Origin: a virus
Reading direction: 5' to 3' (one strand)
DNA length: 64,000 nt
IMG/VR virus record: IMGVR_UViG_3300029214_000148
This document shows, piece by piece, positions 23,842 through 41,232 of this stretch (the stretch's first letter is position 1; the number at the start of each line of letters is the position of its first letter). The notes beneath the pieces are model-generated. The model made no database searches and was not told the origin of the DNA. It saw nothing but the letters and a program-made list of their open reading frames with translations. The position numbers and the translations under genes are program-made.

Positions 23842-23868
23842 TTGACGTTTGTTTAAATGGCGCAATAT
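23842..23868 (+). promoter_or_regulatory. family-1 conserved promoter reading into a small CRISPR array
   Basis: TTGACGTTTGTTTAAATGGCGCAATAT about 75 nt upstream of the first repeat. Confidence 0.5.
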
Positions 23869-23945
23869 TCATAACGAAGGAAGTAAACAGTTAAAAATAA
23901 TCCCACGGGGATAGAGGTTAGTGAATAGCTTTAAGCCACTGTTAT

Positions 23946-24180
23946 AGTTGCACCACGCAAGGGTGCAGGGGTGAAATATTATACTGAATCGTCGCTGCCT
24001 GCATAGATATAGTTGCATCCCTTATGGGATGTATGGGTTGAAATTCAATAGAAACAGATGCATTCGGAGGTGTTACAAGTTGCACCCCCGCAAGGGGTGC
24101 ATGGGTTGAAAATAAGAAATGGTAGGAAGGAATTCAGATATGAACATTAGTTGCATCCCGCAAGGGGTGCAGGGTTGAAA
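23946..24180 (+). CRISPR. degenerate small array, 4 repeats (GTTGCACCCCGCAAGGGGTGCATGGGTTGAAAT-like), 3 spacers
   Basis: repeats at 23946, 24011, 24078, 24149 with spacers of 34-37 nt; spacer 2 near-identical to spacer 2 of the array at 41014. Confidence 0.7.
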
Positions 24181-24343
24181 TAAAAGGATGTTGCCATATA
24201 TGTCAACCGAACTCGGCTATTGAATAACCGAGCATGAGGAAGCGGTTCTTCGGAACCGATGAATCATCCAGTATGACTGGTGAAGCGATGGTATACATAT
24301 TTGAACAAATCAAACAAAAATACAGAATCAGAGGAGAAATAAC

Positions 24344-24982
24344 ATGTCAAAAACAAAAGGACTATCAAAGAAGAAAAAATTACTAAAAACGCTCATGGAT
24401 GAATACCTACCATTTATTACGGTACTACTTATTGTCTTTTTGTATGCAGTAATTGCATTTATTAACATTCCAATTAATAAATGGCTTAGTTTCAACTGTC
24501 CACAATGGTCAGATGGGGAATATCATTTTTGCGATGCATTTTTTGTTCTTCCCTTATTTGAACTGATTATTTGTTTCATTGTGTTTGCTGTTTGTTATTT
24601 TGCCAGCAAGATAACAGCATACAGGAATTATTGTTGCATCCCCCTTACAGAAAATGAAATCAGGAAAAAAGGATTCAGAAACGCAGATGAGTATTTTACC
24701 TACGTGTGCGACATGTGTTCTTATGGTTTTAAAAATAATAAGGGCTACATTCTTGTTGGTGATGAAGACCTCAAAAAAATGTTAACTACTTGTCTGCAGG
24801 TATTTCCTGATAATGGGACAATTTTTTTAATAAACCGCCATATGGTACGAAATATCATATGGGATCCTGATTTTCTTTCCGCGCTTGCACTAGCCAGTGA
24901 CCAAAGGGCGGAAATCATCAATGGACGTGTTGTATTGTCTGGCACCACAAAAGATGGTGACAGAAAAGAATATAAGATATAA
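24344..24982 (+). CDS. two-helix membrane protein, paralog family A
   Basis: 212 aa; N-terminus MSKTKGLSKKKK..FINIPINKWLSF; paralog of 46140..46787; sits immediately downstream of a CRISPR array. Confidence 0.55.
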   Translation: MSKTKGLSKKKKLLKTLMDEYLPFITVLLIVFLYAVIAFINIPINKWLSFNCPQWSDGEYHFCDAFFVLPLFELIICFIVFAVCYFASKITAYRNYCCIPLTENEIRKKGFRNADEYFTYVCDMCSYGFKNNKGYILVGDEDLKKMLTTCLQVFPDNGTIFLINRHMVRNIIWDPDFLSALALASDQRAEIINGRVVLSGTTKDGDRKEYKI

Positions 24983-24998
24983 AGCAAGGAGATATAAT

Positions 24999-25217
24999 AT
25001 GTCAAAGAAAGCATCAGAAACACCGGAGGTGCCATCATATATCCCTCCGGCAAGTGAAAAGGAAAAGATTATAGAAAAGATCCGAAAAAAAGGAATTGAA
25101 TGCAAACCGGATGGTACCGGGATTCCAATATTCTACACAAATGACCCGAAAGTAATGGATATGATCCGAAAAGAGATCAATGAACGATTTTCGTTCGGGT
25201 TTCATATTCGTCCATAG
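24999..25217 (+). CDS. small hypothetical protein
   Basis: 72 aa; ATG after AAGGAGAT. Confidence 0.4.
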   Translation: MSKKASETPEVPSYIPPASEKEKIIEKIRKKGIECKPDGTGIPIFYTNDPKVMDMIRKEINERFSFGFHIRP

Positions 25218-25256
25218 GGAAAATAATAGAAAATAAGATTATAGGAGAAATAGTAC

Positions 25257-25546
25257 ATGTCAAAGAAAAAAATATCAAAAAAGAAAATGTATTAAAGGTG
25301 TTATGGAATGAGTGTATAACATTCAAGGTGTTAATTTTTATCATAGCATATGTAGTGCTTGCGTTTATTAATATGCCATTTGAAAAATGGCTCTCGCTTT
25401 ATTTCGAATGGGAAAAATTAAAGGATTATCAAGAAGTATTCATGGAGGAGATAACATTATTAGTAATTCTCCCTCTCATGGAGATAGCTGCTGTTGCATT
25501 AATTTGTTTTATTATCTATGAGTTTTTTGCTCTGTCAGTAAGATGA
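25257..25546 (+). pseudogene. frameshifted truncated paralog of family A membrane protein
   Basis: MSKKKISKKK...stop; one frame over continues VLKVLWNECITFKV...FINMPFEKWL, matching 46140; shift lies in an A-run. Confidence 0.4.
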
Positions 25547-25655
25547 TTGCATCTGATGAAGTAATTTCGATTGAAAAGGAAGAATGATACGAAAAGAACA
25601 CCGCTATTAGGTCAGAAATAAATAGCAGAGGTTTGCAGATATAAGGAGGATCGGA

Positions 25656-25877
25656 ATGTGTACTTTAAAGGATAAGTTAGTGGAATGTGGAGCATGTGTA
25701 GCAGCTGTAATTCTTGTGTTGGCAGTTTGTTATGGACTAAGTTGGATTGTAACATGTGGAGTTATTAAGCTGATTACGATGTGTTTTGGATTAACATTTA
25801 AGTGGTCCATTGCAACCGGTATTTGGTTAATAATTTGTATTTTGAAAAGTATTTTTAATGTAACTGTTAAGAAATAA
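25656..25877 (+). CDS. small membrane protein
   Basis: 73 aa hydrophobic. Confidence 0.35.
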   Translation: MCTLKDKLVECGACVAAVILVLAVCYGLSWIVTCGVIKLITMCFGLTFKWSIATGIWLIICILKSIFNVTVKK

Positions 25878-26146
25878 ATAGGAGAAATGAGCTATGACAA
25901 TATTAAATTTTATCATTGAGTGTTGGAAGAATTCTTGCGACGAAAAAATCAAAAGGAATTATGTTGAATCCCTTGCTAAAGTGGCGGTTTCAGTGGCCAT
26001 CATTATTATATCTGTTTTATTATATTTGCACATATGAAATGTATAACGGAAATGTATATTTTGGGGGAGGAGGGGTAAGTACAAACATAATTTTTAAAAA
26101 AGTAGCGCAAAGAAAGAATTCACTAATGCAGAAGGAGCGTAACAAT

Positions 26147-27970
26147 ATGATCAACGGAGAATTAGTTGTAGATAATTTTGCGGGCGGAGGAGGAGCTTCC
26201 ACAGGAATTGAACTTGCTACCGGATACAGCGTAGACATAGCTATTAACCATGATCCGGAGGCCATTAAGATGCATAAAGTAAATCATCCCAATACAAAAC
26301 ACTATTGTGAAAACGTATGGGAGGTTGATCCAGTAAAAGCCTGCAAGGGGCACCCTGTCGGTCTTGCATGGTTTTCTCCGGACTGTAAGCATTTTTCCAA
26401 GGCCAAGGGGGGAAAACCGGTAGAAAAGAATATTCGCGGTCTTGCGTGGGTTGTGCTTAAATGGGCGGCACTTGTCAGACCAAGAGTTATCATGCTTGAA
26501 AATGTGGAAGAATTTCAGACATGGGGACCATGTATTCCTATCAGGGATAAAGATACAGGACGCGTTATTGTCAGCATGGTAGGAAGGCATGACAGAGAGA
26601 AGAACGAGCCGCGTACGAGGGTTGCAGATCCAGGAGAAGTTGTTCCTGTAGATCGCCAGATATTCCAACCAGATCCTAAAAGGAGCGGCCAGACATACAA
26701 AAAATGGAGAAAGCAGCTAGAAGCACTTGGATATGAGATAGATACAAAGGAACTTGTAGCAGCTGATTATGGCGCACCTACTATGAGAAAGAGATTCTTT
26801 ATGATTGCACGGTGTGATGGCAAGCCGATTGTCTGGCCGGAACCAACACATGGACCGGCAGACAGTGAAGCGGTTAAAGCAGGTCTTGCCAAACCTTATG
26901 TAGGAGCGTACACGCAATTGGATTTTTCCATGCCGTGTCCGAGTATATTCGATACATCTAAGGAAATCAAAGAGAAGTATGGAATACGCGCTGTACGTCC
27001 ATTGGCGCAGAAAACAATGGATCGAATCGCAAGAGGATTAAAAAAGTTCGTATTAGACAATCCGGAGCCGTTTATTATCCAATGCAATCATGGTGGAGAG
27101 CGTAGACAAAACGACATCAAAGAGCCTTTACCTACTATTACTGGAAAACACGGATATGGAATTGTGGAACCTAAGATTGTTCCATATATGGGAACCAATA
27201 CAACAAATCATCCAGGTGGAAATTGTAAAAATCCTATACATACAATTACAACAGGAAATCAACAGTGCCTTATCAGCCCAACGCTGATTCAGTATTATTC
27301 CGAAACATCGAAGGATGAAGTCAGAAGCCAATCGATTGAAGATCCGATAATGACCGTGGATGGTTCGAACCGATACGGATTGGTCACGTCGTTTCTACAT
27401 AAATATTATGACGGAGGATACACTGGAGCTGGTGATACTGTCGAAAATCCGTTACCGACAGTAACATCCTGGGATCATAACAGTCTGTGTGCAGTTAATC
27501 TGATCCAAATGAATAATCATTGCGATGGAAGGGACGTGAAGGAGCCAATTCCAACAATCACAGCAGGCGATGGTCATTTCGGAGAGGTTAGAGCATTTCT
27601 GATCAAGTATTATGGTCAGGGAACTGGACAGGATGTTAAGGAACCTTTGGATACGGTTACATCAAGAGATCGATTTGGTTTAGTTACAATTAATGGTACC
27701 GACTATAAGATCGTGGATATCGGATTGAGGATGCTTGAACCGAAAGAACTGTATGGATGCCAGGGATTTCCAGATGATTACATCATAGACCGCGATTACA
27801 CAGGGAAAAAATACCCACGGAGTGAGCAGGTACGCAGGTGTGGAAATGCTGTATGTCCTCCGATTCCGGCTGCTCTTGTAAAAGCAAATCTTCCGGAATT
27901 ATGTGTGGCGAAGCGTACCGGCAATATGAAAATCCGGGAGGAACAGACCGGACAGCTTGGATTTGCATAA
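26147..27970 (+). CDS. DNA (cytosine-5)-methyltransferase with five repeated target-recognition modules
   Basis: Motif I FAGGGG; motif IV FSPDCKHFSKAKGG; motif VI ENVEEF; motif X GNAVCPP. Five repeats of (E/N)P(L/I)PT(I/V)T...G. Internal ATG after GAAGGAG. Confidence 0.7.
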   Translation: MINGELVVDNFAGGGGASTGIELATGYSVDIAINHDPEAIKMHKVNHPNTKHYCENVWEVDPVKACKGHPVGLAWFSPDCKHFSKAKGGKPVEKNIRGLAWVVLKWAALVRPRVIMLENVEEFQTWGPCIPIRDKDTGRVIVSMVGRHDREKNEPRTRVADPGEVVPVDRQIFQPDPKRSGQTYKKWRKQLEALGYEIDTKELVAADYGAPTMRKRFFMIARCDGKPIVWPEPTHGPADSEAVKAGLAKPYVGAYTQLDFSMPCPSIFDTSKEIKEKYGIRAVRPLAQKTMDRIARGLKKFVLDNPEPFIIQCNHGGERRQNDIKEPLPTITGKHGYGIVEPKIVPYMGTNTTNHPGGNCKNPIHTITTGNQQCLISPTLIQYYSETSKDEVRSQSIEDPIMTVDGSNRYGLVTSFLHKYYDGGYTGAGDTVENPLPTVTSWDHNSLCAVNLIQMNNHCDGRDVKEPIPTITAGDGHFGEVRAFLIKYYGQGTGQDVKEPLDTVTSRDRFGLVTINGTDYKIVDIGLRMLEPKELYGCQGFPDDYIIDRDYTGKKYPRSEQVRRCGNAVCPPIPAALVKANLPELCVAKRTGNMKIREEQTGQLGFA

Positions 27971-28110
27971 ATTGCATAAATTGCTATACTGTAAAAAGAA
28001 AATGTAAATATTGCTATCATTTGTATTTTTATAGACGTTCATATGCGCAATACATAATTCTTTTTGAAAAAGTAATGAGATGGTAACAAAGAAAAAAGGA
28101 GAGTGAAAGA

Positions 28111-28569
28111 GTGGTTCAAAATTTTGAGGCGTATGGAGTTGAAATTACGGTAGAGAAACCAATTGCTGTATGCGTAGCGTGCTCATTTTGTGTAAACATA
28201 GATATGGCGGTGGATAAAAATGTTACTCATTTTTGTGAAATTCTTGGGAAAGAAATGACTAATCAAGAAGCTGATAATAAACCTTGTTCAGAATGTCCAA
28301 TTACATATAGAAATAAAGAGTCTTTAAATGAAAAGAAGGAGAAAGGAAAAATGTTGATAATAAGTATTGTAATTTTATTTATGGGACTTGTATACATGGG
28401 GGCTATTGGAGTTGAAACTTTTTCACGCTCATTAATTTTTATTATGATTTCCATCGTTGAGCTTTTTCTTATCGTGTATGCGGACCGAAAAGATTTTGAA
28501 GAAAAAAGAAAACGTGATCATTCCATAACTCAATATGATCCGGATGAAGAAACAATAGAAGAGGATTAA
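28111..28569 (+). CDS. hypothetical protein (Cys pairs N-terminal, central membrane helices, acidic tail)
   Basis: 152 aa; GTG start after GGAGAG. Confidence 0.35.
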   Translation: MVQNFEAYGVEITVEKPIAVCVACSFCVNIDMAVDKNVTHFCEILGKEMTNQEADNKPCSECPITYRNKESLNEKKEKGKMLIISIVILFMGLVYMGAIGVETFSRSLIFIMISIVELFLIVYADRKDFEEKRKRDHSITQYDPDEETIEED

Positions 28570-28639
28570 AAAATGGGGGATGAAATTTGCTATTTGCATG
28601 CTTCAGAATAGGAAATTAAAAGGATAATGGAGAATAGAA

Positions 28640-29002
28640 ATGGGAGTTTTTCAAACAAAAGTATACAAGGAATGTTATCCATTTTCGAGAGAGGTTTTGT
28701 ACAATACAGAAAAACGGAAATTAATAATTCATTTACTAGAATTCCGTAATCCGGATCTTGTTTATGGCTCAAAAAAGAAAGCAATGATAACTGGAAGAAA
28801 ATTAAGGAAACAGGTTTTAGTTGCTGTTGACGAAGAATTAGATAAAATAGATGAAATTTATACATATATAGAAAATAGAGAGTATGCGAAAGTTGACGGT
28901 ATTTATATGAATTGGCTTCTCAAATTCTACAAATCCAGGATACGATGTTTTTTGGGAATAGGATTATATATGCCATATCAATGCTTTCAGTTATTTGAAT
29001 AA
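28640..29002 (+). CDS. hypothetical protein
   Basis: 120 aa. Confidence 0.4.
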   Translation: MGVFQTKVYKECYPFSREVLYNTEKRKLIIHLLEFRNPDLVYGSKKKAMITGRKLRKQVLVAVDEELDKIDEIYTYIENREYAKVDGIYMNWLLKFYKSRIRCFLGIGLYMPYQCFQLFE

Positions 29003-29015
29003 AGGTGGTGATATA

Positions 29016-29288
29016 ATTATGCATGAAATAGAAAACAAAATTTTAGAAGAATTGCTTGTTGCACCTTTGTGCATTGTTCAAGACCGGTATGGTGGATGTT
29101 ATTCTGGAGCAGAATATCTGGCATTTAATATGGAACCGTATTTAGTAACAGAATTGGACGTAGATGCAGGTGATATGAGCTGTCGCGATTTTTGGGAATA
29201 CGAAGCGAAAGAGTATATTATTGGAAAAGGAAATACTCCGTTAGAAGCACTATGCGATTTACAAATTAAATTAACTTCAAAGAAGTGA
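29016..29288 (+). CDS. hypothetical protein
   Basis: 90 aa; ATG after AAGGTGGTG. Confidence 0.4.
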   Translation: MMHEIENKILEELLVAPLCIVQDRYGGCYSGAEYLAFNMEPYLVTELDVDAGDMSCRDFWEYEAKEYIIGKGNTPLEALCDLQIKLTSKK

Positions 29289-29482
29289 TTGTGGCAGAAA
29301 GAACGGGTATAAAATGAAAAAGATTCCATGGCTTGTCTTATCTATCAATAACAGCAGAGTACCACTTCCATATGATGCTCCGCATGGGAGTGGTAGTTCA
29401 TAAAAAAGCTTCCATCAATGCTTTTGAAAAGCTATAATTATAACGTGTTATGGTCAAGCTTATAATAAGGAGATGAATAAAT

Positions 29483-29698
29483 ATGTACGGTATATCAAGG
29501 AAAATCCATGAGAGATTCATAAATAGAAAGTCAAAGAAACACGATGAAAAATATACAGTCCCATTTCCTACGGACATTCCAAACCCAAATATCGTGGTTT
29601 TCGGTACTCATGGGAGTGGTAAATGTCGGATGCCTCTTCGCGTTAATGCTCAAATAAAAGAACTGACTACATATGATGGACTGACAGAAAGGAGATAA
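29483..29698 (+). CDS. small hypothetical protein
   Basis: 71 aa; AAGGAG RBS. Confidence 0.35.
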   Translation: MYGISRKIHERFINRKSKKHDEKYTVPFPTDIPNPNIVVFGTHGSGKCRMPLRVNAQIKELTTYDGLTERR

Positions 29699-29700
29699 AT

Positions 29701-30045
29701 ATGGGAACTATTAGAAACAGATTGACGATTGTGAATGATTACAATTTTGATAGAATTACCAACACAAGACAAAATGCGGTTGAATATTTTGGAAAAATCA
29801 TGCGAGATGAATTTGACTTTCCGGATTATGATGTGAACACACAGATGATAAGTCCTATTTTGCCAAGTGTAGTAAACGGCATATACACCTTTGTTATTAT
29901 GGGAGACTGCTCAAAAGACGGATGGGAATTATCTAACGATTTTAAAAAGTACAGAGACGAGTGGATTCGGAAAAATAAGGGTCTAAATATATTGGTTGCA
30001 GACTTTGGAGAGGGAGATGCAGAAGCATATATAAAAGAGTATTAA
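29701..30045 (+). CDS. hypothetical protein
   Basis: 114 aa; AAAGGAG RBS. Confidence 0.4.
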   Translation: MGTIRNRLTIVNDYNFDRITNTRQNAVEYFGKIMRDEFDFPDYDVNTQMISPILPSVVNGIYTFVIMGDCSKDGWELSNDFKKYRDEWIRKNKGLNILVADFGEGDAEAYIKEY

Positions 30046-30256
30046 TGCCCGTTTACAGTCTATAAAAGACATATTGTATCCAGAATTAAGCAAACAAGCC
30101 GTTTCTTCTCGCCTGTAGAAGGAAGGTTGAACTGGATGAAGATGTGACAGTAGACAACTGGAAGGCTCGTATAGATATTGATGAATTAGAAGCTACATAT
30201 CGGGTCGCAGATTTATATACCGGTTCAATCGAAGCGTGATAGTTAATGTGTAAAGA

Positions 30257-30288
30257 AAGAGTCTTGGAATAAGGCTCTTTTTTTTATT
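30257..30288 (+). terminator. rho-independent terminator
   Basis: AAGAGTCTTGGAATAAGGCTCTT + T8. Confidence 0.6.
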
Positions 30289-30321
30289 TCAGAAAAATTT
30301 TCAAGAAATTTCTGATTTACT

Positions 30322-30348
30322 TTGACGATTTTTCAAAAGGCGCAATAT
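30322..30348 (+). promoter_or_regulatory. family-1 conserved promoter (consensus copy)
   Basis: TTGACGATTTTTCAAAAGGCGCAATAT. Confidence 0.55.
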
Positions 30349-30391
30349 GTGTAATGAAGACGAAAATAAGACGATTTTGGAGGGAGAAAAA

Positions 30392-30721
30392 ATGAAAATT
30401 TACTTTGAGGATGGAAAACTTGTCAATATTAAGCAATTACCGATTGCGCCGGATTATGTGATTGATGCTTCTGATGGAGTAACTGCCTGCATGGATATGC
30501 TGGATCGAATTTACTCGACTAATCGAGATGCAGTTGTATATACAAATTCAATTATTGCATTCAGTAACCGGTATGCATGGAATGAAGAGAAGAAAATTTC
30601 GGATGTTTATATCAGAGATGGAGAGGGTATGGAATTTACCAATATTGCGCTTCTGACAAATAGACAACTTCGGGAGGGGCATAATCTCGCGAAGTTGTAT
30701 CTTGGCGGTGAGTTCCGGTAG
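30392..30721 (+). CDS. hypothetical protein
   Basis: 109 aa; ATG after GGAGGGAGAAAAA. Confidence 0.45.
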   Translation: MKIYFEDGKLVNIKQLPIAPDYVIDASDGVTACMDMLDRIYSTNRDAVVYTNSIIAFSNRYAWNEEKKISDVYIRDGEGMEFTNIALLTNRQLREGHNLAKLYLGGEFR

Positions 30722-32962: not shown

Positions 32963-33109
32963 GCTTTTATGGTGAGAGTTTTATTTTTGATCATGGCGAA
33001 ACGATACCAAAGAAAGTCCGGTTTGCAGTGTACGAAAAATGCAACCACCGGTGCAGTTTTTACTTCGAAAAGATCGGACTGGATATGGCGTAAGTTTTTC
33101 AAAAAATCT

Positions 33110-33136
33110 TTGACGATTTTTCAAAAGGCGCAATAT
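33110..33136 (+). promoter_or_regulatory. family-1 conserved promoter
   Basis: TTGACGATTTTTCAAAAGGCGCAATAT. Confidence 0.55.
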
Positions 33137-33139
33137 GTA

Positions 33140-33290
33140 TAGTGTAAAGGTCATAAACCGAGCTGCCAGGGTTACCGGCTGGCAGAAAATCCTTTCGAAA
33201 AATGTTTACGTTCCGGGAAATCCCCGGAAAGGATAGTGGGTACGCAGCGCAAGTTATTCCGGGTTCGACTCCCGGATATCCTTTTTCAAA
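33140..33290 (+). ncRNA. conserved structured leader RNA, copy B
   Basis: same architecture as 21262..21420; T-arm-like CCGGGTTCGACTCCCGG. Confidence 0.45.
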
Positions 33291-33319
33291 ATTGCAGGAA
33301 AAATGTGGAGGAAAAGAGA

Positions 33320-33625: not shown

Positions 33626-33640
33626 ATATAGGAGGCTGGC

Positions 33641-33977: not shown

Positions 33978-34457
33978 GTGGATATAAATGCAGAATACCA
34001 CAAAAGGGCATCAAATCTTGGCATGGAGAAGCAGAGGACTTACCTTCAGTATGAGATCTCCAAGCCAGATGTCATCAGAAAAGATCTTGAGACCGCAAAA
34101 AAGAGGCTGGAAAATGCAAAAGAAAGAAATTTTAAAACGTTGGATGAGTGGGAAGAAAAAATTGAAGCTTATACGAAAGTGTTGGAAGACAGCAAAGTAT
34201 CTTCCTTGTTTTACAATGATATTTCTAACGCCATTTCGGACGGAACAGCACAGTGCCGTATCTGTACCTTCGTTTGGCGGGGTAAATGGAAATATACGGA
34301 AAATATTTCCCTTGGAGTGTGCGTCGTGATCAAGCACATGGGGTACACCTACATTTTTGGCACAAGTCCAGACAGCCAGTATTCTCCATGTTTTGCAGTA
34401 TGGGAAAGCGAAGGAGAACCAGAGCTGGAAGAAGAAAACTACCTTATAGTCAAGTAA
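33978..34457 (+). CDS. hypothetical protein
   Basis: 159 aa; GTG start after GGAG. Confidence 0.4.
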   Translation: MDINAEYHKRASNLGMEKQRTYLQYEISKPDVIRKDLETAKKRLENAKERNFKTLDEWEEKIEAYTKVLEDSKVSSLFYNDISNAISDGTAQCRICTFVWRGKWKYTENISLGVCVVIKHMGYTYIFGTSPDSQYSPCFAVWESEGEPELEEENYLIVK

Positions 34458-34509
34458 GAAAGAAGCCGGGGAATCCCGACTTTTCTGCTGCATTGTGTGT
34501 ATATTTTAA

Positions 34510-34582
34510 CGCCGCCTGCGGGATTCGAACCCGCGGATAAAGAGTTCAAAGCTCCCTGCGTTAACCTTTTCGCCAAGGCGGA
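34510..34582 (-). tRNA. tRNA-Gln (anticodon TTG)
   Basis: Manual fold. T-arm GCGGG-TTCGAAT-CCCGC; anticodon loop CTTTGAA; D-arm GCGA/ACGC. Position 1:72 is a U-C mismatch. No encoded CCA. Confidence 0.55.
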
Positions 34583-34583
34583 G

Positions 34584-34651
34584 CACACCCGGAAGGACTC
34601 GAACCCTCGTTACCGGTTTTGGAGACCAGTTTCTGTCCATCAGACAGGTGC
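34584..34651 (-). tRNA. tRNA-Trp-like (anticodon CCA) with truncated D-arm
   Basis: Anticodon stem-loop CTGGT-CTCCAAA-ACCGG and T-arm fold well; only 68 nt; D-arm TCTG-ATGGA-CAGA is abnormally short. Confidence 0.35.
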
Positions 34652-34655
34652 ATAA

Positions 34656-34726
34656 CAGGCGATAATGGAATCGAACCATTGTTTTCTGAGTCAGAATCAG
34701 ATGTCTTACCATTGAACGAATCGCCC
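34656..34726 (-). tRNA. tRNA-Gln (anticodon CTG)
   Basis: Anticodon stem TCTGA/TCAGA perfect; loop TTCTGAC; 4-nt variable loop; acceptor GGGCGAT/ATCGCCT. Confidence 0.55.
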
Positions 34727-34728
34727 AG

Positions 34729-34802
34729 TATCCCCAAAGGGACTCGAACCCTTAACCGACAGATTAGAAATCTGTTGCTCTTTCCAATTGAGCTATGGGG
34801 GT
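34729..34802 (-). tRNA. tRNA-Arg (anticodon TCT)
   Basis: Anticodon stem ACAGA/TCTGT; loop TTTCTAA; D-arm GCTC-AATTGGAAA-GAGC; one acceptor mismatch. Confidence 0.6.
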
Positions 34803-34808
34803 ATATAG

Positions 34809-34898
34809 CGCAGACACCGGGGATCGAACCCGGACAGCGGGTGTGCCGCATGCCACATTAGCAGTGTGGAGGGGTACCATTTACCTTTATATGTCTGC
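34809..34898 (-). tRNA. tRNA-Ser (anticodon GCT), class II
   Basis: Anticodon stem CCACA-CTGCTAA-TGTGG; long variable arm GCGG-CACA-CCGC; acceptor GCAGACA/TGTCTGC. Confidence 0.6.
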
Positions 34899-34903
34899 AT
34901 AAG

Positions 34904-34975
34904 AGGCATCGGAGGGGATCGAACCCTCGCCTTCCGGGTTGCAGCCGGACGCCTTCGCCGTTTGGCTACGATGCC
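34904..34975 (-). tRNA. tRNA-Cys (anticodon GCA)
   Basis: Acceptor GGCATCG/CGATGCC perfect; anticodon stem TCCGG/CCGGA; loop CTGCAAC. Confidence 0.65.
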
Positions 34976-35005
34976 ATATAATTCTTCCCGATAAGAGAAG
35001 ATGAG

Positions 35006-35089
35006 CGCTGTGGCAGGGAGTCGAACCCTGATATCCTTTCGGAATGACGGTTTTCAGGACCGTTGCTTTACCAGTTGAGCCACCACAGC
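35006..35089 (-). tRNA. tRNA-Ser-like (anticodon TGA), class II, with C at position 33
   Basis: Acceptor GCTGTGG/CCACAGC; anticodon stem ACGGT/ACCGT; loop CCTGAAA; variable arm TCC-GAAA-GGA. Confidence 0.5.
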
Positions 35090-35197
35090 AAAAATAAAAG
35101 CATACACCTCTCAATCGAAAGATGTATGCTTTGTAATTCCAGGTATTTCCAATATTCTCCCGGAAATTTTCCTACAATGACCACATTTCTTTCAATT

Positions 35198-35278
35198 TGA
35201 GACAATATTTATTTGCACGACAACTACGCCAGATACATGACTGCGACTGACTCATACTTGCCTGTGAATATTGTCTCA
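35198..35278. repeat. 12-bp inverted repeat pair (TGAGACAATATT ... AATATTGTCTCA) separated by 57 bp, inside the tRNA cluster gap
   Basis: read directly; lies between the two tRNA sub-clusters. Confidence 0.5.
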
Positions 35279-35334
35279 TTACTGCTGTAATCATTGATTT
35301 TCCCTTCCTTTCCTTGGTTTTCTTGAATATTTAG

Positions 35335-35408
35335 TGTGTCTGGTGGGACTTGAACCCGACGACCCCACGATTAAAAGTCGCGTGCTCTGCCAACTGAGCT
35401 ACAGACAC
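35335..35408 (-). tRNA. tRNA-Lys (anticodon TTT)
   Basis: Acceptor GTGTCTG/CAGACAC perfect; D-arm GCTC-AGTTGGCA-GAGC; anticodon loop CTTTTAA; weak T-stem. Confidence 0.6.
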
Positions 35409-35413
35409 ATAAG

Positions 35414-35485
35414 CGGATCAGGAGGGAATCGAACCCTCATCTTCCGGTAGACAGCCGGATGTACTAGCCGCTATACTACAGATCC
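35414..35485 (-). tRNA. tRNA-Asp (anticodon GTC) with U at position 37
   Basis: Anticodon stem TCCGG/CCGGA; loop CTGTCTA; D-arm GTAT-AGCGGCTA-GTAC. Confidence 0.55.
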
Positions 35486-35489
35486 ATAA

Positions 35490-35562
35490 AGCTCCCGTCC
35501 GGCTTCGAACCGGAAACCTTCTGATTACAAGTCAGATGCACTACCAGTTGTGCTACAGGAGC
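35490..35562 (-). tRNA. tRNA-Thr (anticodon TGT)
   Basis: Acceptor GCTCCTG/CGGGAGC; D-arm GCAC-AACTGGTA-GTGC; anticodon stem TCTGA/TCAGA. Confidence 0.65.
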
Positions 35563-35646
35563 AGGAACACTTCCGACGGGTGCTGCCCCGCTATCTCCGC
35601 CGTGACAGGGCGGTGACTCTGTTGTTTGTCCTCGGAAGTAAATAAG

Positions 35647-35728
35647 TGCGCCGGGGAGGACTCGAACCTCCGGTGTTTCTTTGTGGCTGATTTACAGTCA
35701 GCTGCTGTCGCCTCTGAGCCACCGACGC
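35647..35728 (-). tRNA. tRNA-Tyr (anticodon GTA), class II
   Basis: Acceptor GCGTCGG/CCGGCGC; anticodon stem GCTGA-CTGTAAA-TCAGC; long variable arm. Confidence 0.6.
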
Positions 35729-35733
35729 ATAAG

Positions 35734-35806
35734 CTGGTCCGGAGGGTCTCGAACCCTCAACGCCCCGGTTAACAGCCGGGTGCTCTACCATTGAGCTACG
35801 GATCAG
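35734..35806 (-). tRNA. tRNA-Asn (anticodon GTT)
   Basis: Anticodon stem CCCGG/CCGGG; loop CTGTTAA; D-arm GCTC-AATGGTA-GAGC. Confidence 0.6.
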
Positions 35807-35878
35807 AGCATGTGACGGGTCTCGAACCCGCCCGTCCTGCTTGGAAGGCAGGTGTGCCGCCAACAACACTTCACATGC
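35807..35878 (-). tRNA. tRNA-Gly (anticodon TCC)
   Basis: Acceptor GCATGTG/CACATGC perfect; anticodon stem CCTGC/GCAGG; loop CTTCCAA; A at position 8. Confidence 0.6.
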
Positions 35879-36431
35879 ATGCGGATAAAAGAAGTGCCTG
35901 TTTTCTCTTATCCATTCAGTTTTTTACCGCATCGCTGCGGAGTGGACAGGAGTGGTAACGATCCACCCTGTAAGGATTTTCAGTCCTTCGCTAATCCATC
36001 TCAGCTACCTGTCCATGGCTTTTTCTGCAATAAAAAAGCCGCATCAAGAAATTTCCTCTTCTCTCTGCGGTCATCTGCGTTTTGCAATATTTCGGTTTTA
36101 AGTGCCTGGTTTAAAATCGAAATCGACCGCGGGAAGGTGTATCATAATAGTTCTGTCCCCATGTTTTCCCGGATTTTGAGCATGAGAAACTAAACATATT
36201 GCTGAAATCGCCGTATGTTCTACAATCATTATTAAAATTTTTACTACTCATCATCTTTAACATGGTTTTCTTTTCCTTTCATTTTAATTAATGCTGGATA
36301 AACAAAAAGCCCGTCACTTAACTCAAAGCTACACATCCAAATAGCTCTGAGTTAAAAGACAGGCACTTCTTTTATCTCATGCACCTATCATATCATACTG
36401 ATCGTGAAGTGTCAACAGGAAATTTAAAAAA

Positions 36432-36500
36432 GGTTATTTTTGGTTATTTTGGTTATTTTTCAAAATAAAACAAAATAAAACAAAATAAAACAAATAAAAA
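36432..36500. repeat. tandem repeats GGTTATTTT x3 and CAAAATAAAA x4
   Basis: read directly, in the 3-prime flank of the minus-strand gene. Confidence 0.6.
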
Positions 36501-36526
36501 TCTCCGCCAAAATAGACGGAGATTTG
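36501..36526 (-). terminator. terminator for the minus-strand gene
   Basis: TCTCCGCCAAAATAGACGGAGA hairpin followed on the minus strand by a T-rich run. Confidence 0.55.
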
Positions 36527-36530
36527 AAAA

Positions 36531-37151
36531 TTAACAGGTTAATTCGTAGTCGTACAGATCGAGCGGCGTTTTGTTTCCGCTGGACCACTCAAACTCTTCG
36601 TTGTCCCAAATGCTGCGGGCGTTGTTCAGATTGATCTCATCCGCCAGTACCTTTTCTTCGATATTAATGAACCGTTCCAAAGATTCTTTGAAGCGGTTGA
36701 TGACTTCCTCGGGATTCTTTGAATGCCAGCTGTATTCGTCGAAAAACCTTCCACTGGCGGTAATTGTTAATTCCTCGCCGTTATCCGACAATCCAGATAA
36801 TTCAAGTGTAACCATTCCCTCGGAAATATCGCTATAATATTCGCCTGGTTTGTTGGTATCGTTGATTTTGTTCCCTAGTTCTTCCGCTTTTTCCATCATG
36901 CCCCAAATTTCCCCTGGAAGCGTAAGGTAGTCTTCTGGATAGTGTTCCACGGTTGGGTTGATTTCCTCTTGCAGGAGATCTTCAACAAAATTGTCTCCTT
37001 TAAAAATAGCAAAAGAGTCGACACCTCTTGCGGAAACCTCAACTTTCCCGCATTTGCATGGGAATATTTTAAAAAGTCTTCTATCTCGAGTGTCATAAGC
37101 TACTGAAAAAATGCCGCATTCTTTGCATTTAAAATTTCTTTGTGTTTTCAT
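36531..37151 (-). CDS. hypothetical protein with N-terminal zinc ribbon
   Basis: 206 aa from internal Met (MKTQRNFKCKECG...CKCGKV) preceded by GGGAGAAAAATC; family-2 promoter upstream on the minus strand. Confidence 0.5.
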   Translation of the reverse strand: MKTQRNFKCKECGIFSVAYDTRDRRLFKIFPCKCGKVEVSARGVDSFAIFKGDNFVEDLLQEEINPTVEHYPEDYLTLPGEIWGMMEKAEELGNKINDTNKPGEYYSDISEGMVTLELSGLSDNGEELTITASGRFFDEYSWHSKNPEEVINRFKESLERFINIEEKVLADEINLNNARSIWDNEEFEWSSGNKTPLDLYDYELTC

Positions 37152-37159
37152 GATTTTTC

Positions 37160-37215
37160 TCCCTTCATCAATGGTTTTATTTACACTTTTAATATGAAAT
37201 ATTAAAAATATTTCA
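37160..37215 (-). promoter_or_regulatory. family-2 promoter/leader on minus strand
   Basis: TTTCATATTAAAAGTGTAAATAAAACC ... GAAGGGAG. Confidence 0.4.
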
Positions 37216-37234
37216 AAAAATTTCCCGGAAATTT

Positions 37235-37261
37235 TTGACGAAATTTCAAAAGGCGCAATAT
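37235..37261 (+). promoter_or_regulatory. family-1 conserved promoter, divergent from the minus-strand family-2 promoter
   Basis: TTGACGAAATTTCAAAAGGCGCAATAT. Confidence 0.5.
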
Positions 37262-37289
37262 ATGTAATGAAAGGAGGAGGAAATACAAA

Positions 37290-37622
37290 TTGGAATGTTT
37301 GACATGCAAGAAACACTGGTCGCAGGGAGGCCGCTATTCAGAGAACGTGAGAAACTGCCTGCATTATGAGGAAGAACCAAGAGGAAAAATGGTCCGCACA
37401 GAACTGTCTTTTCGTATGGATGCAGAGGCGGAAACTCCGGTGGTCAGATTTGGAGAGAAAATACTGGTTTCCGATGGTTCAAAAGCGGTCGAGATGACTG
37501 TGGTCAAGATCAACTGGGTTAATCTTCGGGATATGCTCTGCAATGTATCCGCGGATTATCATGAGAATGAGATGCCGCGATTTGAGAAAGAAAAGAAGTT
37601 CAAAGCATTACATGGAAAATAG
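37290..37622 (+). CDS. hypothetical protein
   Basis: 110 aa; TTG start after AGGAGGAGG; its stop abuts a small CRISPR array. Confidence 0.4.
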   Translation: MECLTCKKHWSQGGRYSENVRNCLHYEEEPRGKMVRTELSFRMDAEAETPVVRFGEKILVSDGSKAVEMTVVKINWVNLRDMLCNVSADYHENEMPRFEKEKKFKALHGK

Positions 37623-37728
37623 TTGCATTCCAGTGGAATGCATGGGGTGAAAGAAATAGGCAAATCGCATGACAATTTCTGAAATTAAATTGTTGCGCTC
37701 CCGTGGAGGGGGGCGTATGGATTGAAAT
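37622..37728 (+). CRISPR. small array, 2 degenerate repeats + 1 spacer, in the 3-prime UTR
   Basis: GTTGCATTCCAGTGGAATGCATGGGGTGAAAG / 38-nt spacer / GTTGCGCTCCCGTGGAGGGGGGCGTATGGATTGAAAT. Confidence 0.55.
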
Positions 37729-37875
37729 GTGGAATCCTGTGATTGGCACATACTTGGGTGTAGTGCAGAAAAAGTGACTCATTACAGATCACTTTCGATG
37801 AAAATTTGCTTTGCGATTTTTCCGATCACCCAATTTGGAATGTCGCTGCGGCATCCAGAATGGATTTCTCCGTTT

Positions 37876-38058
37876 TCAACAAAAAAAGAATGCGGATTCT
37901 TCCGTTTTCATGCGGTCTAAAGCTTGCGCAGAAAAATATAAGGAATGGTGGAAGTCGCATCTTTGTGCCTCCTCATATGTATGGACTTCCTCTATTTTCC
38001 CATCGATCAGGCTGACACAGCCGGACCAGAACTCTTTTCCTTCGAATATTGCTGCCAT
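37876..38058 (-). CDS. small hypothetical protein
   Basis: 60 aa; GAAAGGAGCAAAAC-ATG with a family-2 promoter on the minus strand. Confidence 0.4.
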   Translation of the reverse strand: MAAIFEGKEFWSGCVSLIDGKIEEVHTYEEAQRCDFHHSLYFSAQALDRMKTEESAFFFC

Positions 38059-38135
38059 GTTTTGCTCCTTTCAAAATACTTTCGTTTACACTTTCAATAT
38101 GAAATGAAAATATTTCAAAACATTTCCAAAAACTT

Positions 38136-38162
38136 TTGACGATTTTTTAAATGGCGCAATAT
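38136..38162 (+). promoter_or_regulatory. family-1 conserved promoter
   Basis: TTGACGATTTTTTAAATGGCGCAATAT. Confidence 0.55.
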
Positions 38163-38335
38163 GTATCATGTAAAGGTCATAAACCGAGCTGCCAGGGTTA
38201 TCGGCTGGCAGAAATCTTTTCGATATTTGTTTACACTCCGGGGAAACCCGGAAGGGGTAGTGAGGACGCAGCGTGTGCTGTTTCCGGGTTCGATTCCCGG
38301 GTATCCCTTTTGACTGCCACATACGGTCTTCTCAA
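38163..38335 (+). ncRNA. conserved structured leader RNA, copy C
   Basis: same core as copies A and B; T-arm-like CCGGGTTCGATTCCCGGG; followed by about 250 nt of extra leader before the gene. Confidence 0.45.
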
Positions 38336-38589
38336 AATTCAGCCGTCTGCGGCCTGTGGAACTTTCCACTGGACCAAAATAACGATAACCGCCAGAATAA
38401 CAGCAGCGTGCGTTGGCGTGAGAACTATCGGCGCACAGGGATTACTCCTTTCATATTTATCTATCAAACCTTTCCGTACATCGTATGGAAAGGTTATGGG
38501 ACAGCAGGTGCATAGACATGAACTATTCCGGGATCGTTTCCCGGATGTTCCATTTTTAAAACATTAAAACAAATCATAGGAGGGAATTG

Positions 38590-39315
38590 ATGATGGAGAA
38601 AGAAGTAGTATATGTTGCAGAACTGGATTCCGATGTTGATGATGTCGTTGCGGCACATTACTTATTTAACGAGGGTGTGTTAAAGTGTGTAGTATGCGAT
38701 CCATATCCAAGAACACCGGAGGGGTTGGCACGAAAGGGAAAGCTGGAAGCGCTTGGCATCGATGTGGTTAAGAAAATGCCACCGGTTGCAAAATATGTGT
38801 TTGTTGGCGGCGCTCTTACGGCTGTTGCTGGCTATATCCGGATGCACCATGTCGACTGGCTGGTAATGAACGGAGGCTTTGTTGGAGCAAATATTGCGAC
38901 CTTTGAACTGGATAAGTTCAAGGGGAAGAACACTGTCCGTACCTTCAATTTCAACTGCGATGTTGTGGCTGCAGATACGGTTTTGAAAACTGATGAGAAG
39001 CATATTTCTCATATTGTTCTTGTCGGAAAAAACGTCTGCCATGACGTCCGAAATACGAAAAATGGTCTCTGGAGTGGCGAGAAATACAAGAAATTGTTCG
39101 ATGAGTACCGGGTTAAGGATGAGAAGCGTCAACACGACTTGCTTGCCTGCCATGAGGGGCTTGCATTTCTGCGGGGAACCAATGCGATCTGTGAGTATGA
39201 GATGGTAAGACCATACAACACAGGCTTGAATGGCAAGCTGACGCAGTGGGGTAGCACAAAAACCATGGAAACACCATATCGCGAAGTGCTTGCTGCTGTT
39301 GGCTACCAGAATTAA
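38590..39315 (+). CDS. hypothetical protein, possible nucleoside-hydrolase-like fold
   Basis: N-terminal VYVAELDSDVDDVVAA loosely resembles the aspartate-cluster motif of nucleoside hydrolases; strong RBS AGGAGGG. Confidence 0.35.
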   Translation: MMEKEVVYVAELDSDVDDVVAAHYLFNEGVLKCVVCDPYPRTPEGLARKGKLEALGIDVVKKMPPVAKYVFVGGALTAVAGYIRMHHVDWLVMNGGFVGANIATFELDKFKGKNTVRTFNFNCDVVAADTVLKTDEKHISHIVLVGKNVCHDVRNTKNGLWSGEKYKKLFDEYRVKDEKRQHDLLACHEGLAFLRGTNAICEYEMVRPYNTGLNGKLTQWGSTKTMETPYREVLAAVGYQN

Positions 39316-39317
39316 AA

Positions 39318-39422
39318 GCTGCATCATGTGCGGGGGTGTATGGATTGAAATGTCGGAGTATGGTGTAAGAATCATATATATTCCTACGTTGTGCTCCTCC
39401 CGGTTGGTGCATGGGTTGAAAT
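39318..39422 (+). CRISPR. small array, 2 degenerate repeats + 1 spacer, in the 3-prime UTR
   Basis: GCTGCATCATGTGCGGGGGTGTATGGATTGAAAT / 36-nt spacer / GTTGTGCTCCTCCCGGTTGGTGCATGGGTTGAAAT. Confidence 0.5.
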
Positions 39423-39653
39423 ATAGTTCTAAAAATGGTTGGAAGACCTGTTTTTTGGTTACACCCATTGTCAGCTGTAAACCACAGTTAAGGCTTTCGG
39501 ATGCGGTTAAAGTTTAAAAAGGCAACACCGCCAGATGGCTGTTCCTTTCGCGCCCTGAGATCAAGAAATCATTATGGGGCGGGCACTTACCAAATGAACT
39601 TGAAAGAAAGATCTACGTGGAATCCATGATCCACAGGACAAAGGATAATCCCA

Positions 39654-40010
39654 TTGTCCTTTATGACTTTGATGACAGGTTTTACCAGTGCATGTACATG
39701 CTCCACTATGCGTGAAGATGGCACAGTCGCTGAAAGACGGTTCTTAAAACTCCCGGCAGAATACGACTCTCTGCAACATAAGATCGATCATATCAAACGT
39801 GCACGGCACCATGGTTCCAGACGTGTTTCAAACCTCTGGGCATATGCAGACGACGTCAATAAAGACATTGTTGTAAAAACAGCCCAGTTTGTTACGGATA
39901 CTGCCGTGCTGCATGTTAACAGCATGCAGTTGCGGTGTTATCACTGTGTCCTCAGTCAGCGAGTCCATACGGGAAAACAGGTATGGAAGCACGCGAATTT
40001 AGTCATGTGA
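39654..40010 (+). CDS. hypothetical ORF (weak)
   Basis: 118 aa; poor RBS. Confidence 0.2.
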   Translation: MSFMTLMTGFTSACTCSTMREDGTVAERRFLKLPAEYDSLQHKIDHIKRARHHGSRRVSNLWAYADDVNKDIVVKTAQFVTDTAVLHVNSMQLRCYHCVLSQRVHTGKQVWKHANLVM

Positions 40011-40120
40011 GACTTCACGGCCGGCCGCCGAAAGGACGTACACTACAAAAGCCTTTTGCACCTGACTTTTCTGTGGTATACTGAAAATATAAAAGATATT
40101 TCAAGGAGAAGGCAGAGAAA

Positions 40121-40993
40121 ATGAGAAAAAGTGTGAAAGATTTTGGAAATTTTGTAAGAAAAGACAATTACCCGGAGCTTCCAGAAGAATTGAAAGAATT
40201 TAACTATTTTTTGAGTGATGGCGAGACGGGACATGTGATCATGGCTGTGCCTGAGCACACTTTGAATAAAGCAGAAGAAAATGGGGATGAACTGGATGAT
40301 TACGAATGTCCAGTTCCAGTGGCATATGTTCTTAAGAATGGCTATCGGCTGTATAAGAACCATGTAATATGCCAGGTTCCGTACGATGAGAAACTGGGGA
40401 TGCGTATTCCGGAAGAATATTACGAACCGTCGATTATTTCTACAGATGCCGGGGAAGCAGAGAATCCGGTGTCCGGAGAGTTCCCTTATGAGAAAAGGAA
40501 ATGCTATCCAGAATTTGCAAACCATGCAGAAGCTGTAGTTGCGGATATCGTTAAGGATTACGTGCAGATCCGCGTATTTTTTAAAAATCCTACAGAAAAC
40601 GAGATTGCACAGTTTTCTCCGGATGCCAGACTGAAAATTCGTTTTACGGAGATGGATGGAACCTGTCTGTTTACCGTTAAAGCTGGTGATTTGTCATGGA
40701 TGGATGCACCATACCATGCAAAACTTGCAAAAGATTTGTCTGGATTCGACTTTACAGGTGAAAGTGAGATTCCGTTATATCTCCTCCTGATCGACTCATC
40801 GAATGGTGAGGTCAAAGCGGTTCGAAATGTCCAGTTGTCAGAAGAGTTTTCCAGCAAATTGAGAAATCTGGTGGATCGTCAGGTCAACTCTGATTTTGAT
40901 AAAAAGAAATATGCGGATATATTGTCCAACATTTATCTCCTTTTTTCATCGGATGAGCTGGCGGATGCCAGCACCATTAAGTGTCAGTGGTAG
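40121..40993 (+). CDS. hypothetical protein
   Basis: 290 aa; AAGGAGAAGG RBS; followed directly by a small array then a terminator. Confidence 0.5.
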   Translation: MRKSVKDFGNFVRKDNYPELPEELKEFNYFLSDGETGHVIMAVPEHTLNKAEENGDELDDYECPVPVAYVLKNGYRLYKNHVICQVPYDEKLGMRIPEEYYEPSIISTDAGEAENPVSGEFPYEKRKCYPEFANHAEAVVADIVKDYVQIRVFFKNPTENEIAQFSPDARLKIRFTEMDGTCLFTVKAGDLSWMDAPYHAKLAKDLSGFDFTGESEIPLYLLLIDSSNGEVKAVRNVQLSEEFSSKLRNLVDRQVNSDFDKKKYADILSNIYLLFSSDELADASTIKCQW

Positions 40994-41013
40994 GTAAGAA
41001 GATATACTTTACT

Positions 41014-41232
41014 GTTGCGCCCCATTGGGTGCATGGGTTGAAATCTTTATGACCTTCTGAAAAGTGAGGGCATCTTAGTTGCACCCCCGCAAGGGATGTA
41101 TGGGTTGAAATTCAATAGAAACAGATGCATTCGAAGGCGTTACAAGTTGCACCCCGCGAGGGGTGTATGGGTTGAAATTGCAGAAAGCTCAGGATTGGAA
41201 GGTTGCATCCTATGGGATGCATGGATTGAAAC
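41014..41232 (+). CRISPR. small array, 4 degenerate repeats + 3 spacers
   Basis: repeats at 41014, 41078, 41146, 41202; spacer 2 (TCAATAGAAACAGATGCATTCGAAGGCGTTACAA) matches spacer 2 at 24044 with 2 mismatches. Confidence 0.7.

Follow-up and report, generated by a model that had tools for sequence, protein, structure and literature searches.

The stretch of DNA analysed here, 64,000 nucleotides (nt) of the IMG/VR virus record IMGVR_UViG_3300029214_000148 (the window in the following), contains four small CRISPR arrays, which start at positions 23947, 37622, 39318 and 41014, and a truncated solo repeat at 41679. All of them are on the + strand and within transcription units, and the mini-arrays sit 0.5 to 18 kb upstream of the genes cas5c, cas8c and cas7 of a reduced type I-C module. 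On balance we favour the reading that the mini-arrays are leaderless, fixed type I-C guides embedded in messenger RNAs (mRNAs), which Cas5c would process and the element's own Cascade would employ against foreign or host-accessory genes. The observations that carry this reading are the identity and lineage of the repeats, the covariation of their hairpins, their placement in transcripts, the invariance of the arrays, their history of duplication, and one perfect protospacer flanked by a protospacer adjacent motif (PAM).

An initial annotation of the window had listed these five sites and called their repeats type I-C-like. All five are present, and the design of hairpin plus tail upholds the assignment to type I-C. 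That account mentioned neither cas5c-cas8c-cas7 nor the main array of 12 repeats that follows, and a sixth mini-array lies beyond the window; flanks of 10 kb were added on either side, so that 84 kb was inspected.

Repeats, cas genes and transcripts

The mini-array repeats are degenerate type I-C repeats, in which a hairpin of 6-8 bp is followed by a tail of 11-12 nt (ATGGRTTGAAAT). The repeat family in the window is about 31-37 nt long with the consensus GTTGCACCCCnnnnGGGGTGYATGGRTTGAAAT. The tail motif GTRYATGGRTTGAAA, with at most one mismatch, has 17 copies on the + strand, every one inside the arrays, where shuffles lead one to expect 0.12, and a single off-array match on the - strand. 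A type I-C array is marked by repeats of some 32-34 nt that contain a hairpin and share a conserved 3' tail (TGGATTGAAA[CT]), a pattern seen here with some copies degenerate. The canonical PAM of this type is TTC and its native spacers are 33-37 nt long (PMC5602111), a length shared by at least five of the eight mini-array spacers.

Mini-array A (23947-24181; repeats at 23947-77, 24012-44, 24079-112 and 24150-81) has four degenerate repeats and three spacers of 34, 34 and 37 nt, and mini-array D (41014-41232; repeats at 41014-44, 41078-111, 41146-78 and 41202-32) has four repeats and three spacers of 33, 34 and 23 nt, the second of which, D2, occupies 41112-41145. Mini-arrays B (37622-37728; repeats at 37622-53 and 37692-728) and C (39318-39422; repeats at 39318-51 and 39388-422) have one spacer each, of 38 and 36 nt, respectively. 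The solo repeat E (41679-41704) consists of the hairpin and ATGGGT, the remainder of the tail being absent; it is unable to yield a guide because there is no handle upstream of it, and is probably a Cas5c binding or cleavage site only. The sixth mini-array, G, is found about 4.1 kb past the 3' end of the window (contig L110, 14749-14845) and starts 160 nt past the preceding stop codon. In G one full repeat and a 32-nt spacer come before a terminal repeat that breaks off past the hairpin and directly abuts the ribosome-binding site (RBS) and start codon of the next gene, in a configuration like that of solo E. Truncated terminal repeats before start codons, as in E and G, give no guide on their own. 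Of the guide-bearing units, nine in all with eight in the window and one in G, six have a near-canonical handle.

Directly 3' of solo E follow cas5c (41719-42393), cas8c (42390-44129) and cas7 (csd2; 44131-45042), all on the + strand and with strong NCBIfam and PADLOC scores, and then the canonical main I-C array, F (45293-46069, + strand), with 12 repeats and 11 spacers. The product of cas5c is a homologue of the endonuclease that cuts precursor CRISPR RNA (pre-crRNA) and matches solved structures of the D. vulgaris enzyme, 8DEX and 7KHA (E ~2e-65). By tblastn with canonical I-C queries there was no match to cas3, cas4, cas1 or cas2 in the window and the 10 kb on each side, and the positive controls were recovered (Cas5 at 63% and Cas7 at 76% identity). 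In a search of 5.8 billion proteins the relatives of Cas8c fall from 99% straight to about 52% identity. The DNA relative MT836695 (69% identical) is a canonical complete I-C locus and is uninformative about mini-arrays.

Two other possibilities were set aside. The superfamily 2 (SF2) helicase of 766 aa encoded directly upstream of array A (21472-23772) was rejected as a substitute for Cas3, having the likeness of RadD or of a type I restriction R subunit and no BLASTP similarity to Cas3; it may be the element's conjugation or relaxase-associated helicase. A type I-C CRISPR-associated transposon with delocalised guides would have Tn7-like tnsB/tnsC/tniQ beside a Cas3-less Cascade, and neither a transposase nor TniQ was found among the genes flanking the Cascade by Pfam, NCBIfam or PADLOC scans or precomputed Pfam marks.

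The lineage of the repeats was examined against 80 chromosomal I-C loci of Lachnospiraceae with 1,644 spacers, a set which may not be the group of the true host. The repeats of these loci are of the type GTCGCTCCCCTCGCGGGAGCGTGGATTGAAAT. The 11-nt handle of the element's repeats is nearly identical in the Lachnospiraceae I-C repeats (TGGATTGAAAT) and the tail agrees with the 80 loci, but the stems and 5' ends of the mini-array repeats differ from all 80 repeat types and agree with the element's own array. The main array opens with the repeat GCTACGCCCCATGGAGGGCGTATGGATTGAAAA, and its repeats decay toward the trailer into GTTGCACCTCGCTAGGGGTGTATGGGTTGAAAT and GTTGCACCCCATAGAGGGTGTATGGATTGAAAT, which are of the mini-array type; the trailer repeats F10 and F11 resemble the mini-array repeats. 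The mini-arrays therefore go back to the same lineage as the old end of the main array. They belong to the element's own repeat family and do not mimic the sampled host repeats. None of the 1,644 host spacers matched the window over more than 17 nt, and no Rfam family matched the repeats.

The hairpin is conserved as a structure. Among 23 repeats 92% of cells are paired and 15 double-sided changes are present, a result equalled by none of 500 shuffles. Compensatory changes occur among the mini-array copies too (GCATCCC/GGGATGT, GCATTCC/GGAATGC and GCACCCC/GGGGTGC), and the ranges of predicted hairpin stability of the mini-arrays and the main array overlap.

The transcripts that carry the arrays can be outlined from a promoter-like motif, TTGACG-N11-GGCGCAATAT, which has 11 copies in the window, on the + strand only, compared to 0.03 expected. 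The copies span 69-41625 (for example at 23842, 30322, 33110, 37235, 38136, 41337 and 41599), and every array is co-directional with promoters of this family. The copy at 23842-23868, which had been annotated as a family-1 promoter and is confirmed as a copy of the motif, lies 78 nt upstream of array A; the array forms the 5' leader of an operon starting at 24344, where a gene for a 212-aa protein begins 162 nt after the array. The copy at 37235-37261 is upstream of an open reading frame (ORF) of 110 aa (37290-37622), and the stop codon of this ORF runs into the first base of array B. A third copy (38136-38162) precedes the operon that bears arrays C and D, in the order 242-aa ORF (38587-39315; stop 2 nt ahead of array C), array C, 118-aa ORF (39654-40010), 290-aa ORF (40121-40993; stop 20 nt ahead of array D), array D and terminator. 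The terminator is intrinsic and strong (approximately 41263-41308, + strand), with an 18-bp stem and T9, and ends the array D transcript. The cas operon has tandem promoter copies at 41337-41363 and, proximally, 41599-41625, and solo E is inside the 5' untranslated region (UTR) of cas5c, 15 nt upstream of the start codon.

The nearness to stop codons that had been pointed out for arrays B, C and D is borne out, at 0, 2 and 20 nt. The accompanying claim that these three lie in 3' UTRs is correct in the strict sense for D only; array B follows an ORF, and array C is intercistronic, since the ORF at 39654-40010 comes next without a predicted terminator. Placed as 5' leader (A), after an ORF (B), between cistrons (C) and in a 3' UTR (D), the mini-arrays are thus without a leader and without a dedicated transcription unit. 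Such scattering across mRNAs is, as had been stated, unlike a canonical CRISPR locus, but the Cascade genes and the main array are 0.5-18 kb away, and the main array is of the same repeat lineage.

Two observations concern the promoters themselves. A protein of the sigma-70 family encoded at 5121-5849 might read the TTGACG-N11-GGCGCAATAT promoters. In addition, a leader of some 190 nt recurs with 84-91% identity at 33096-33286 and 38123-38313, just 3' of two promoter copies, and carries hairpins resembling the T-arm of tRNA (GGTTCGAnTCC). Segments at 38524-38560 and 41395-41571 are grouped with it, and a similar structured segment separates the two cas promoters. Neither Rfam nor ARAGORN makes a call for the repeated leader, which may be an undescribed small RNA.

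Spacer targets, fixity and spread of the arrays

The target of D2 was found by scanning the JGI metagenome contigs with the first 22 nt common to spacers A2 and D2, a non-A being required three bases upstream, a rule that excludes the arrays themselves. The scan returned four contigs (L104-L107, of 33, 232, 6 and 205 kb), all of which read GGATTTC-TCAATAGAAACAGATGCATTCGAAGGCGTTACAA-AATGGG and thus match D2 at 34/34 positions with a TTC PAM on the 5' side; 12 further matched bases and the PAM lay outside the search pattern. By blastn and tblastx these contigs have nothing else in common with the window. The match of 34/34 with a TTC PAM in foreign DNA marks D2 as an ordinary immune-type spacer.

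The protospacer falls within a gene, on its sense strand, and the encoded protein has a helix-turn-helix (HTH) at its N-terminus, the local peptide being FSIETDAFEGVT. The gene is intact in L104 (3870-5591, 573 aa) and truncated in L105 (8521-9481), with a deletion or insertion difference of 2.9 kb; A2 departs from the target allele at spacer positions 23 and 27, with one of the changes non-synonymous and the other synonymous. In the target protein the N-terminal HTH alone is recognised, and the protein database has fragments only. Short-read assemblies often break at or near this gene. Its neighbourhood encodes an XRE-HTH protein, of a family with members in Lachnospiraceae and further Firmicutes, as well as a YhcG/PDC-S02 nuclease, a transposase fragment, Mokosh-like helicase fragments, a sigma factor and an M15 peptidase. 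The region looks like accessory DNA of a mobile-element or defence-island kind, and the contigs look like those of Firmicutes; no counterpart of the region was found among phages or plasmids.

Searches of the mini-array spacers against phages, plasmids, the 80 host loci and the element itself, much as the initial annotation had proposed, added no target to that of D2 (and its variant A2) on the metagenome contigs. The INPHARED phages gave nothing meaningful for any mini-array or main-array spacer, the PLSDB plasmids gave nothing for the mini-array spacers, and scans of IMG/VR with spacer 20-23-mers gave nothing. All spacers were also scanned throughout the window for 5'-anchored matches, with every sixth position ignored. 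Outside the A2/D2 twin, no mini-array spacer had a PAM-proximal match in the window longer than 10 nt, and none had a seed match in the cas promoter region or in the other promoter copies. Compared with the 80 Lachnospiraceae loci the element's spacers gave nothing above chance, and the best match, of A1 to a host repeat (18/19 nt, E 0.02), was judged to be chance. The likeness to CRISPR-derived regulatory RNAs that had been suggested for these units is not borne out by these scans, in which partial self-matches longer than 10 nt, matches at the cas promoter and matches in the 80 host loci were all absent.

The main array gives a somewhat different picture. Its spacer F5 (45597-45631) looks back to the promoter family of the element itself, of which it is a diverged copy; at 41326 it matches 15/16 PAM-proximal bases, the PAM there being TTT and position 1 being mismatched. 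Spacer F10 (45933-45966) has a 15-nt exact PAM-proximal match on the - strand at 12687-12701. These partial matches suggest that the main array also targets relatives of the element.

About 20 metagenomic copies of the element, roughly 99% identical, allowed the stability of the arrays to be compared. Arrays A, C and D show no differences in any of these variants, and array B is the same in all but one. In that variant (L015, 7780-7990, equivalent to about 37235-38100 of the window) the 110-aa ORF and array B are replaced by another mini-array, which is well formed, better preserved, positioned directly after the promoter and carries the spacer TTATAAGCGGAAATGTGAACCAATTTGATATTTT. The leader end of the main array (45293-45500) has five configurations among the variants, as compared with L001, L015, L016 and L023; the differences include unique spacers, one duplication and one deletion, and the older block beneath is conserved. 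This turnover indicates that the main array still gains spacers, with adaptation proteins that would come either from another part of the element or from the host. No such leader-proximal acquisition is seen in the mini-arrays, which, to judge from the variants, change through module exchange only. Polymorphism density was uninformative as a test of selection, the variants being too alike.

The arrays also bear traces of how they were spread. Spacers A2 and D2 had been reported to differ at only 2 of 34 positions between similar flanking repeats, and we find the same, 32/34 positions being identical. The identity runs into the flanking repeats (24019-24088 and 41086-41155, 93% over 70 nt), and the repeats upstream of both spacers have the unusual 3' arm GGGATGT. 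In the second repeat of array D (D_R2) this arm is joined to a 5' arm of the type seen in the third repeat of array A, with mismatches in the hairpin as a result, and this chimera looks like a signature of recombination between repeats. The shared arm and the chimeric-looking repeat favour the earlier interpretation of A2/D2 as a duplicated or recombined unit and not as independent acquisitions. Solo E and the first repeat of array C have 27/31 nt of upstream flank in common. Furthermore, the 212-aa gene downstream of array A (24344-24982, + strand) and a 215-aa gene downstream of the main array (46140-46787, + strand) are paralogs (50% identity, E 1e-72), and a third, partial copy of the family is present at 25262-25513. 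The family is element-specific, its proteins start with MSKTKG and both full paralogs directly follow a CRISPR array; no member was found in the 80 Lachnospiraceae I-C loci. The paralogous genes point to an ancient duplication of an array-plus-gene module. Because of the shared flanks, the paralogous downstream gene and the A2/D2 unit, we attribute the spread of the arrays to duplication and recombination.

Possible functions of the mini-arrays

If the mini-arrays are fixed guides, their spacers would first have been acquired by the normal PAM-dependent route, and segmental duplication and recombination between repeats would then have spread the units over the element. No spacers are gained now, and the arrays would be transcribed passively from the element's promoters as 5' leader, intercistronic segment or 3' UTR. 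Cas5c would cut at the base of each hairpin in repeats of the GTTGCACC type, and cleavage would free a small fixed set of CRISPR RNAs (crRNAs) with the 11-nt handle UGGRUUGAAAU for the element's own Cascade. These guides would supplement the adaptive main array and steer the Cascade to targets such as the HTH-protein gene of D2 and A2. There is no Cas3 nearby, and therefore the most likely outcome would be that binding alone silences or excludes the target, or that a Cas3 supplied in trans degrades it.

Several points weigh against this reading. The processing of crRNAs, their loading and the outcome at the target are steps that we infer. A single protospacer was found, exact for D2 and with two mismatches for A2; the other six mini-array spacers are without a target in INPHARED or PLSDB, and A1, A3 and D1 were also scanned in IMG/VR and gave no match. 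Several units are degenerate: C_R1 and C_R2 form weak hairpins, the handles of repeats A_R1, A_R4 and B_R1 depart from the consensus, and spacer D3 is just 23 nt long. Invariance in a population that is 99% identical is no proof of selection, and the search for cas3 and cas1-2 spans 84 kb of an element that may exceed 200 kb.

Part of this evidence would equally be expected if the mini-arrays were decaying relics, that is, non-functional debris of older arrays, broken and copied by rearrangement and transcribed by chance of location. The repeats are degenerate, spacers of 23 and 38 nt are aberrant, E and G end in truncated repeats, the origin by duplication and recombination is clear, the mini-array spacers never turn over, and most of them have no detectable target. 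We regard this explanation as possible though rather doubtful, since debris would not readily account for hairpins kept by compensatory changes within the mini-array repeats themselves, for near-canonical handles in six of nine guide-bearing units, or for a transcription-competent orientation in every array. The perfect match of D2 to an extant target, PAM included, and the different, well-formed mini-array that holds locus B in variant L015 likewise argue against decay.

It is tempting to speculate, although we consider it unlikely in its full extent, that the CRISPR memory of the element is split between the adaptive main array and inherited guides wired into operons, with the repeats doubling as Cas5c-dependent mRNA processing sites that couple plasmid gene expression, Cascade dosage and silencing of a host or rival HTH-protein gene by a Cas3-less Cascade. 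The hairpins would then provide 3' ends after stop codons and defined 5' ends before RBSs, and the site in the cas5c leader would be autoregulatory.

Rather less again can be said for a purely cis-acting role, which seems to us quite unlikely, with the repeats serving as Cas5c sites that trim or stabilise the flanking mRNAs, the spacers being incidental and E autoregulating the cas operon. The start of arrays B and C 0-2 nt past stop codons would fit such a role, as would the truncation after the hairpin of solo E and of the last repeat of G where they abut an RBS and start codon, the missing upstream handle of E, by which it makes no guide, and the location of arrays A, C and D in a 5' leader, an intercistronic segment and a 3' UTR, respectively. 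However, complete repeat-spacer-repeat units with intact handles have been kept where single hairpins would do, array G, at 160 nt past a stop codon, shows that stop adjacency is not general, and no spacer has a PAM-proximal match to the cas promoter of the kind known from CreR.

Most improbable is that the units are anti-CRISPR decoys or hijackers (Racr- or Cracr-like) by which host I-C proteins are titrated or redirected to their own cas promoters: the handle is nearly that of the Lachnospiraceae repeats, Cracr arrays, I-C included, are reported from phages and plasmids (bioRxiv 10.1101/2024.10.29.618823) and solitary repeat units work as Racrs (PMC10651486), but stems and 5' ends follow the element's array and none of the 80 host loci, the element supplies its own Cas5c, Cas8c and Cas7, the spacers match the host I-C loci at chance level only (at best the 18 of 19 nt of A1), the full-length match of D2 is to a non-cas gene, and solo E is within the cas5c 5' UTR and is no separate gene.

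The carrier element and comparison with known systems

The element is very common in human gut metagenomes, where its backbone proteins are indexed in 136 to 260 assembly-collection blocks and exact copies of its proteins are present on many contigs of up to 186-212 kb; searches of PLSDB and IMG/VR did not find it. The window encodes a PBP-like transglycosylase, topoisomerase III, a VirB4-like ATPase, PcfJ and an AAA protein, as well as a sigma factor, a cytosine methyltransferase and the RadD-like helicase, and the carrier looks like a large extrachromosomal element of the gut, a conjugative megaplasmid. The Hodor conjugative megaplasmids of the gut are very common, large and formerly filed among huge phages, and are marked by Rep_3, ParA/B/M, sortases and VirB4/VirD4, sizes of 211-389 kb and a GC content of 44.6-47.1% (PMC12934698). 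In the element a VirB4-like ATPase, a topoisomerase, PcfJ, an I-C system with degenerate arrays and contigs of up to 212 kb recall this group, whereas Rep_3, ParA/B/M and sortases are absent from the window and the GC content, about 41%, is below the Hodor range. The element may belong or be related to these megaplasmids.

Other features of the window include 14 tRNAs, of which 13 form a cluster at 34509-36014 on the - strand, opposite to nearly all protein genes, and one is a tRNA-Met at 52778-52852; a possible 14th, weak tRNA is at 34809-34894. A HEARO (omega) RNA followed by an RRXRR-HNH protein (54526-56102) constitutes an IscB-type RNA-guided nuclease locus, and tandem paralogous gene pairs are present at 49057-50520 and 62341-63584 (67% and 73% identical).

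Mini-arrays on viruses and other mobile elements generally have repeats identical to those of the host, rely on host Cas proteins and direct most spacers against close relatives (PMC11656645; Faure 2019; Medvedeva 2019). The arrays described here are likewise short (1-3 spacers), are carried on a mobile element and have at least one spacer against mobile or accessory DNA. However, their repeats agree with the element's own array, the Cascade is encoded by the element itself, the arrays sit inside the mRNAs of protein genes, and the single target identified has no relation to the element. Neither repeats identical to those of the 80 sampled loci nor mini-array spacers against close relatives were found. 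The resemblance to virus-borne arrays proposed in the initial annotation thus holds for small arrays on a mobile element and fails for the repeats and cas genes, which are the element's own and not the host's.

The reduced module is comparable to the I-C variants of huge phages, which are without Cas1/Cas2 and have a helicase in the place of Cas3 (Al-Shayeb 2020, PMC7162821). Both are carried on a large mobile element and have a Cas5c-type Cascade with neither adaptation genes nor Cas3 nearby, but the element's SF2 helicase is 18 kb away, RadD-like and not similar to Cas3, and dispersed mini-arrays in mRNAs are not described for those phages (PMC7162821).

CreA/CreR and Cracr guides act by partial PAM-proximal complementarity to a cas or toxin promoter (10.1101/2023.03.03.530964; 10.1101/2024.10.29.618823). 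They share with the present arrays degenerate repeats in mini-arrays near a cas locus or on a mobile element, some being multiplexed, and I-C examples are reported. The element's spacers differ in having no promoter match, a PAM-proximal match of >=9 nt to a cas or toxin promoter being found neither at the element's promoters nor in the 80 host loci, and D2 has a full-length, PAM-flanked external protospacer. A Racr is a stand-alone repeat on a mobile element that imitates the host repeat and is expressed as a small RNA; solo E is a truncated repeat of the element's own type within the cas5c 5' UTR.

Type IV-A systems of plasmids serve in competition with other plasmids and gain their spacers in trans (PMC7038947; 10.1101/2023.06.23.546257). 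The element resembles them in its conjugative-plasmid-like carrier, in an effector without nuclease or adaptation genes nearby and in a main array that is still gaining leader-end spacers, and by this analogy nuclease-independent interference by its Cascade is plausible. It differs in that the system is I-C and not IV, has no DinG and has several fixed satellite arrays.

CRISPR-bearing mobile elements are usually described with a full locus or with a lone mini-array that borrows host proteins, whereas the present element has adaptive and fixed arrays for one Cas3-less Cascade. New here is this combination of an adaptive array with several fixed satellites, embedded in coding transcripts and serving one element-encoded Cascade. 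If the fixed guides are used, the element would be a natural, plasmid-like case in which the RNA-guided targeting of particular foreign or host genes is inherited, and it would also offer a natural analogue of engineered CRISPR-repeat processing that cuts polycistronic RNAs.

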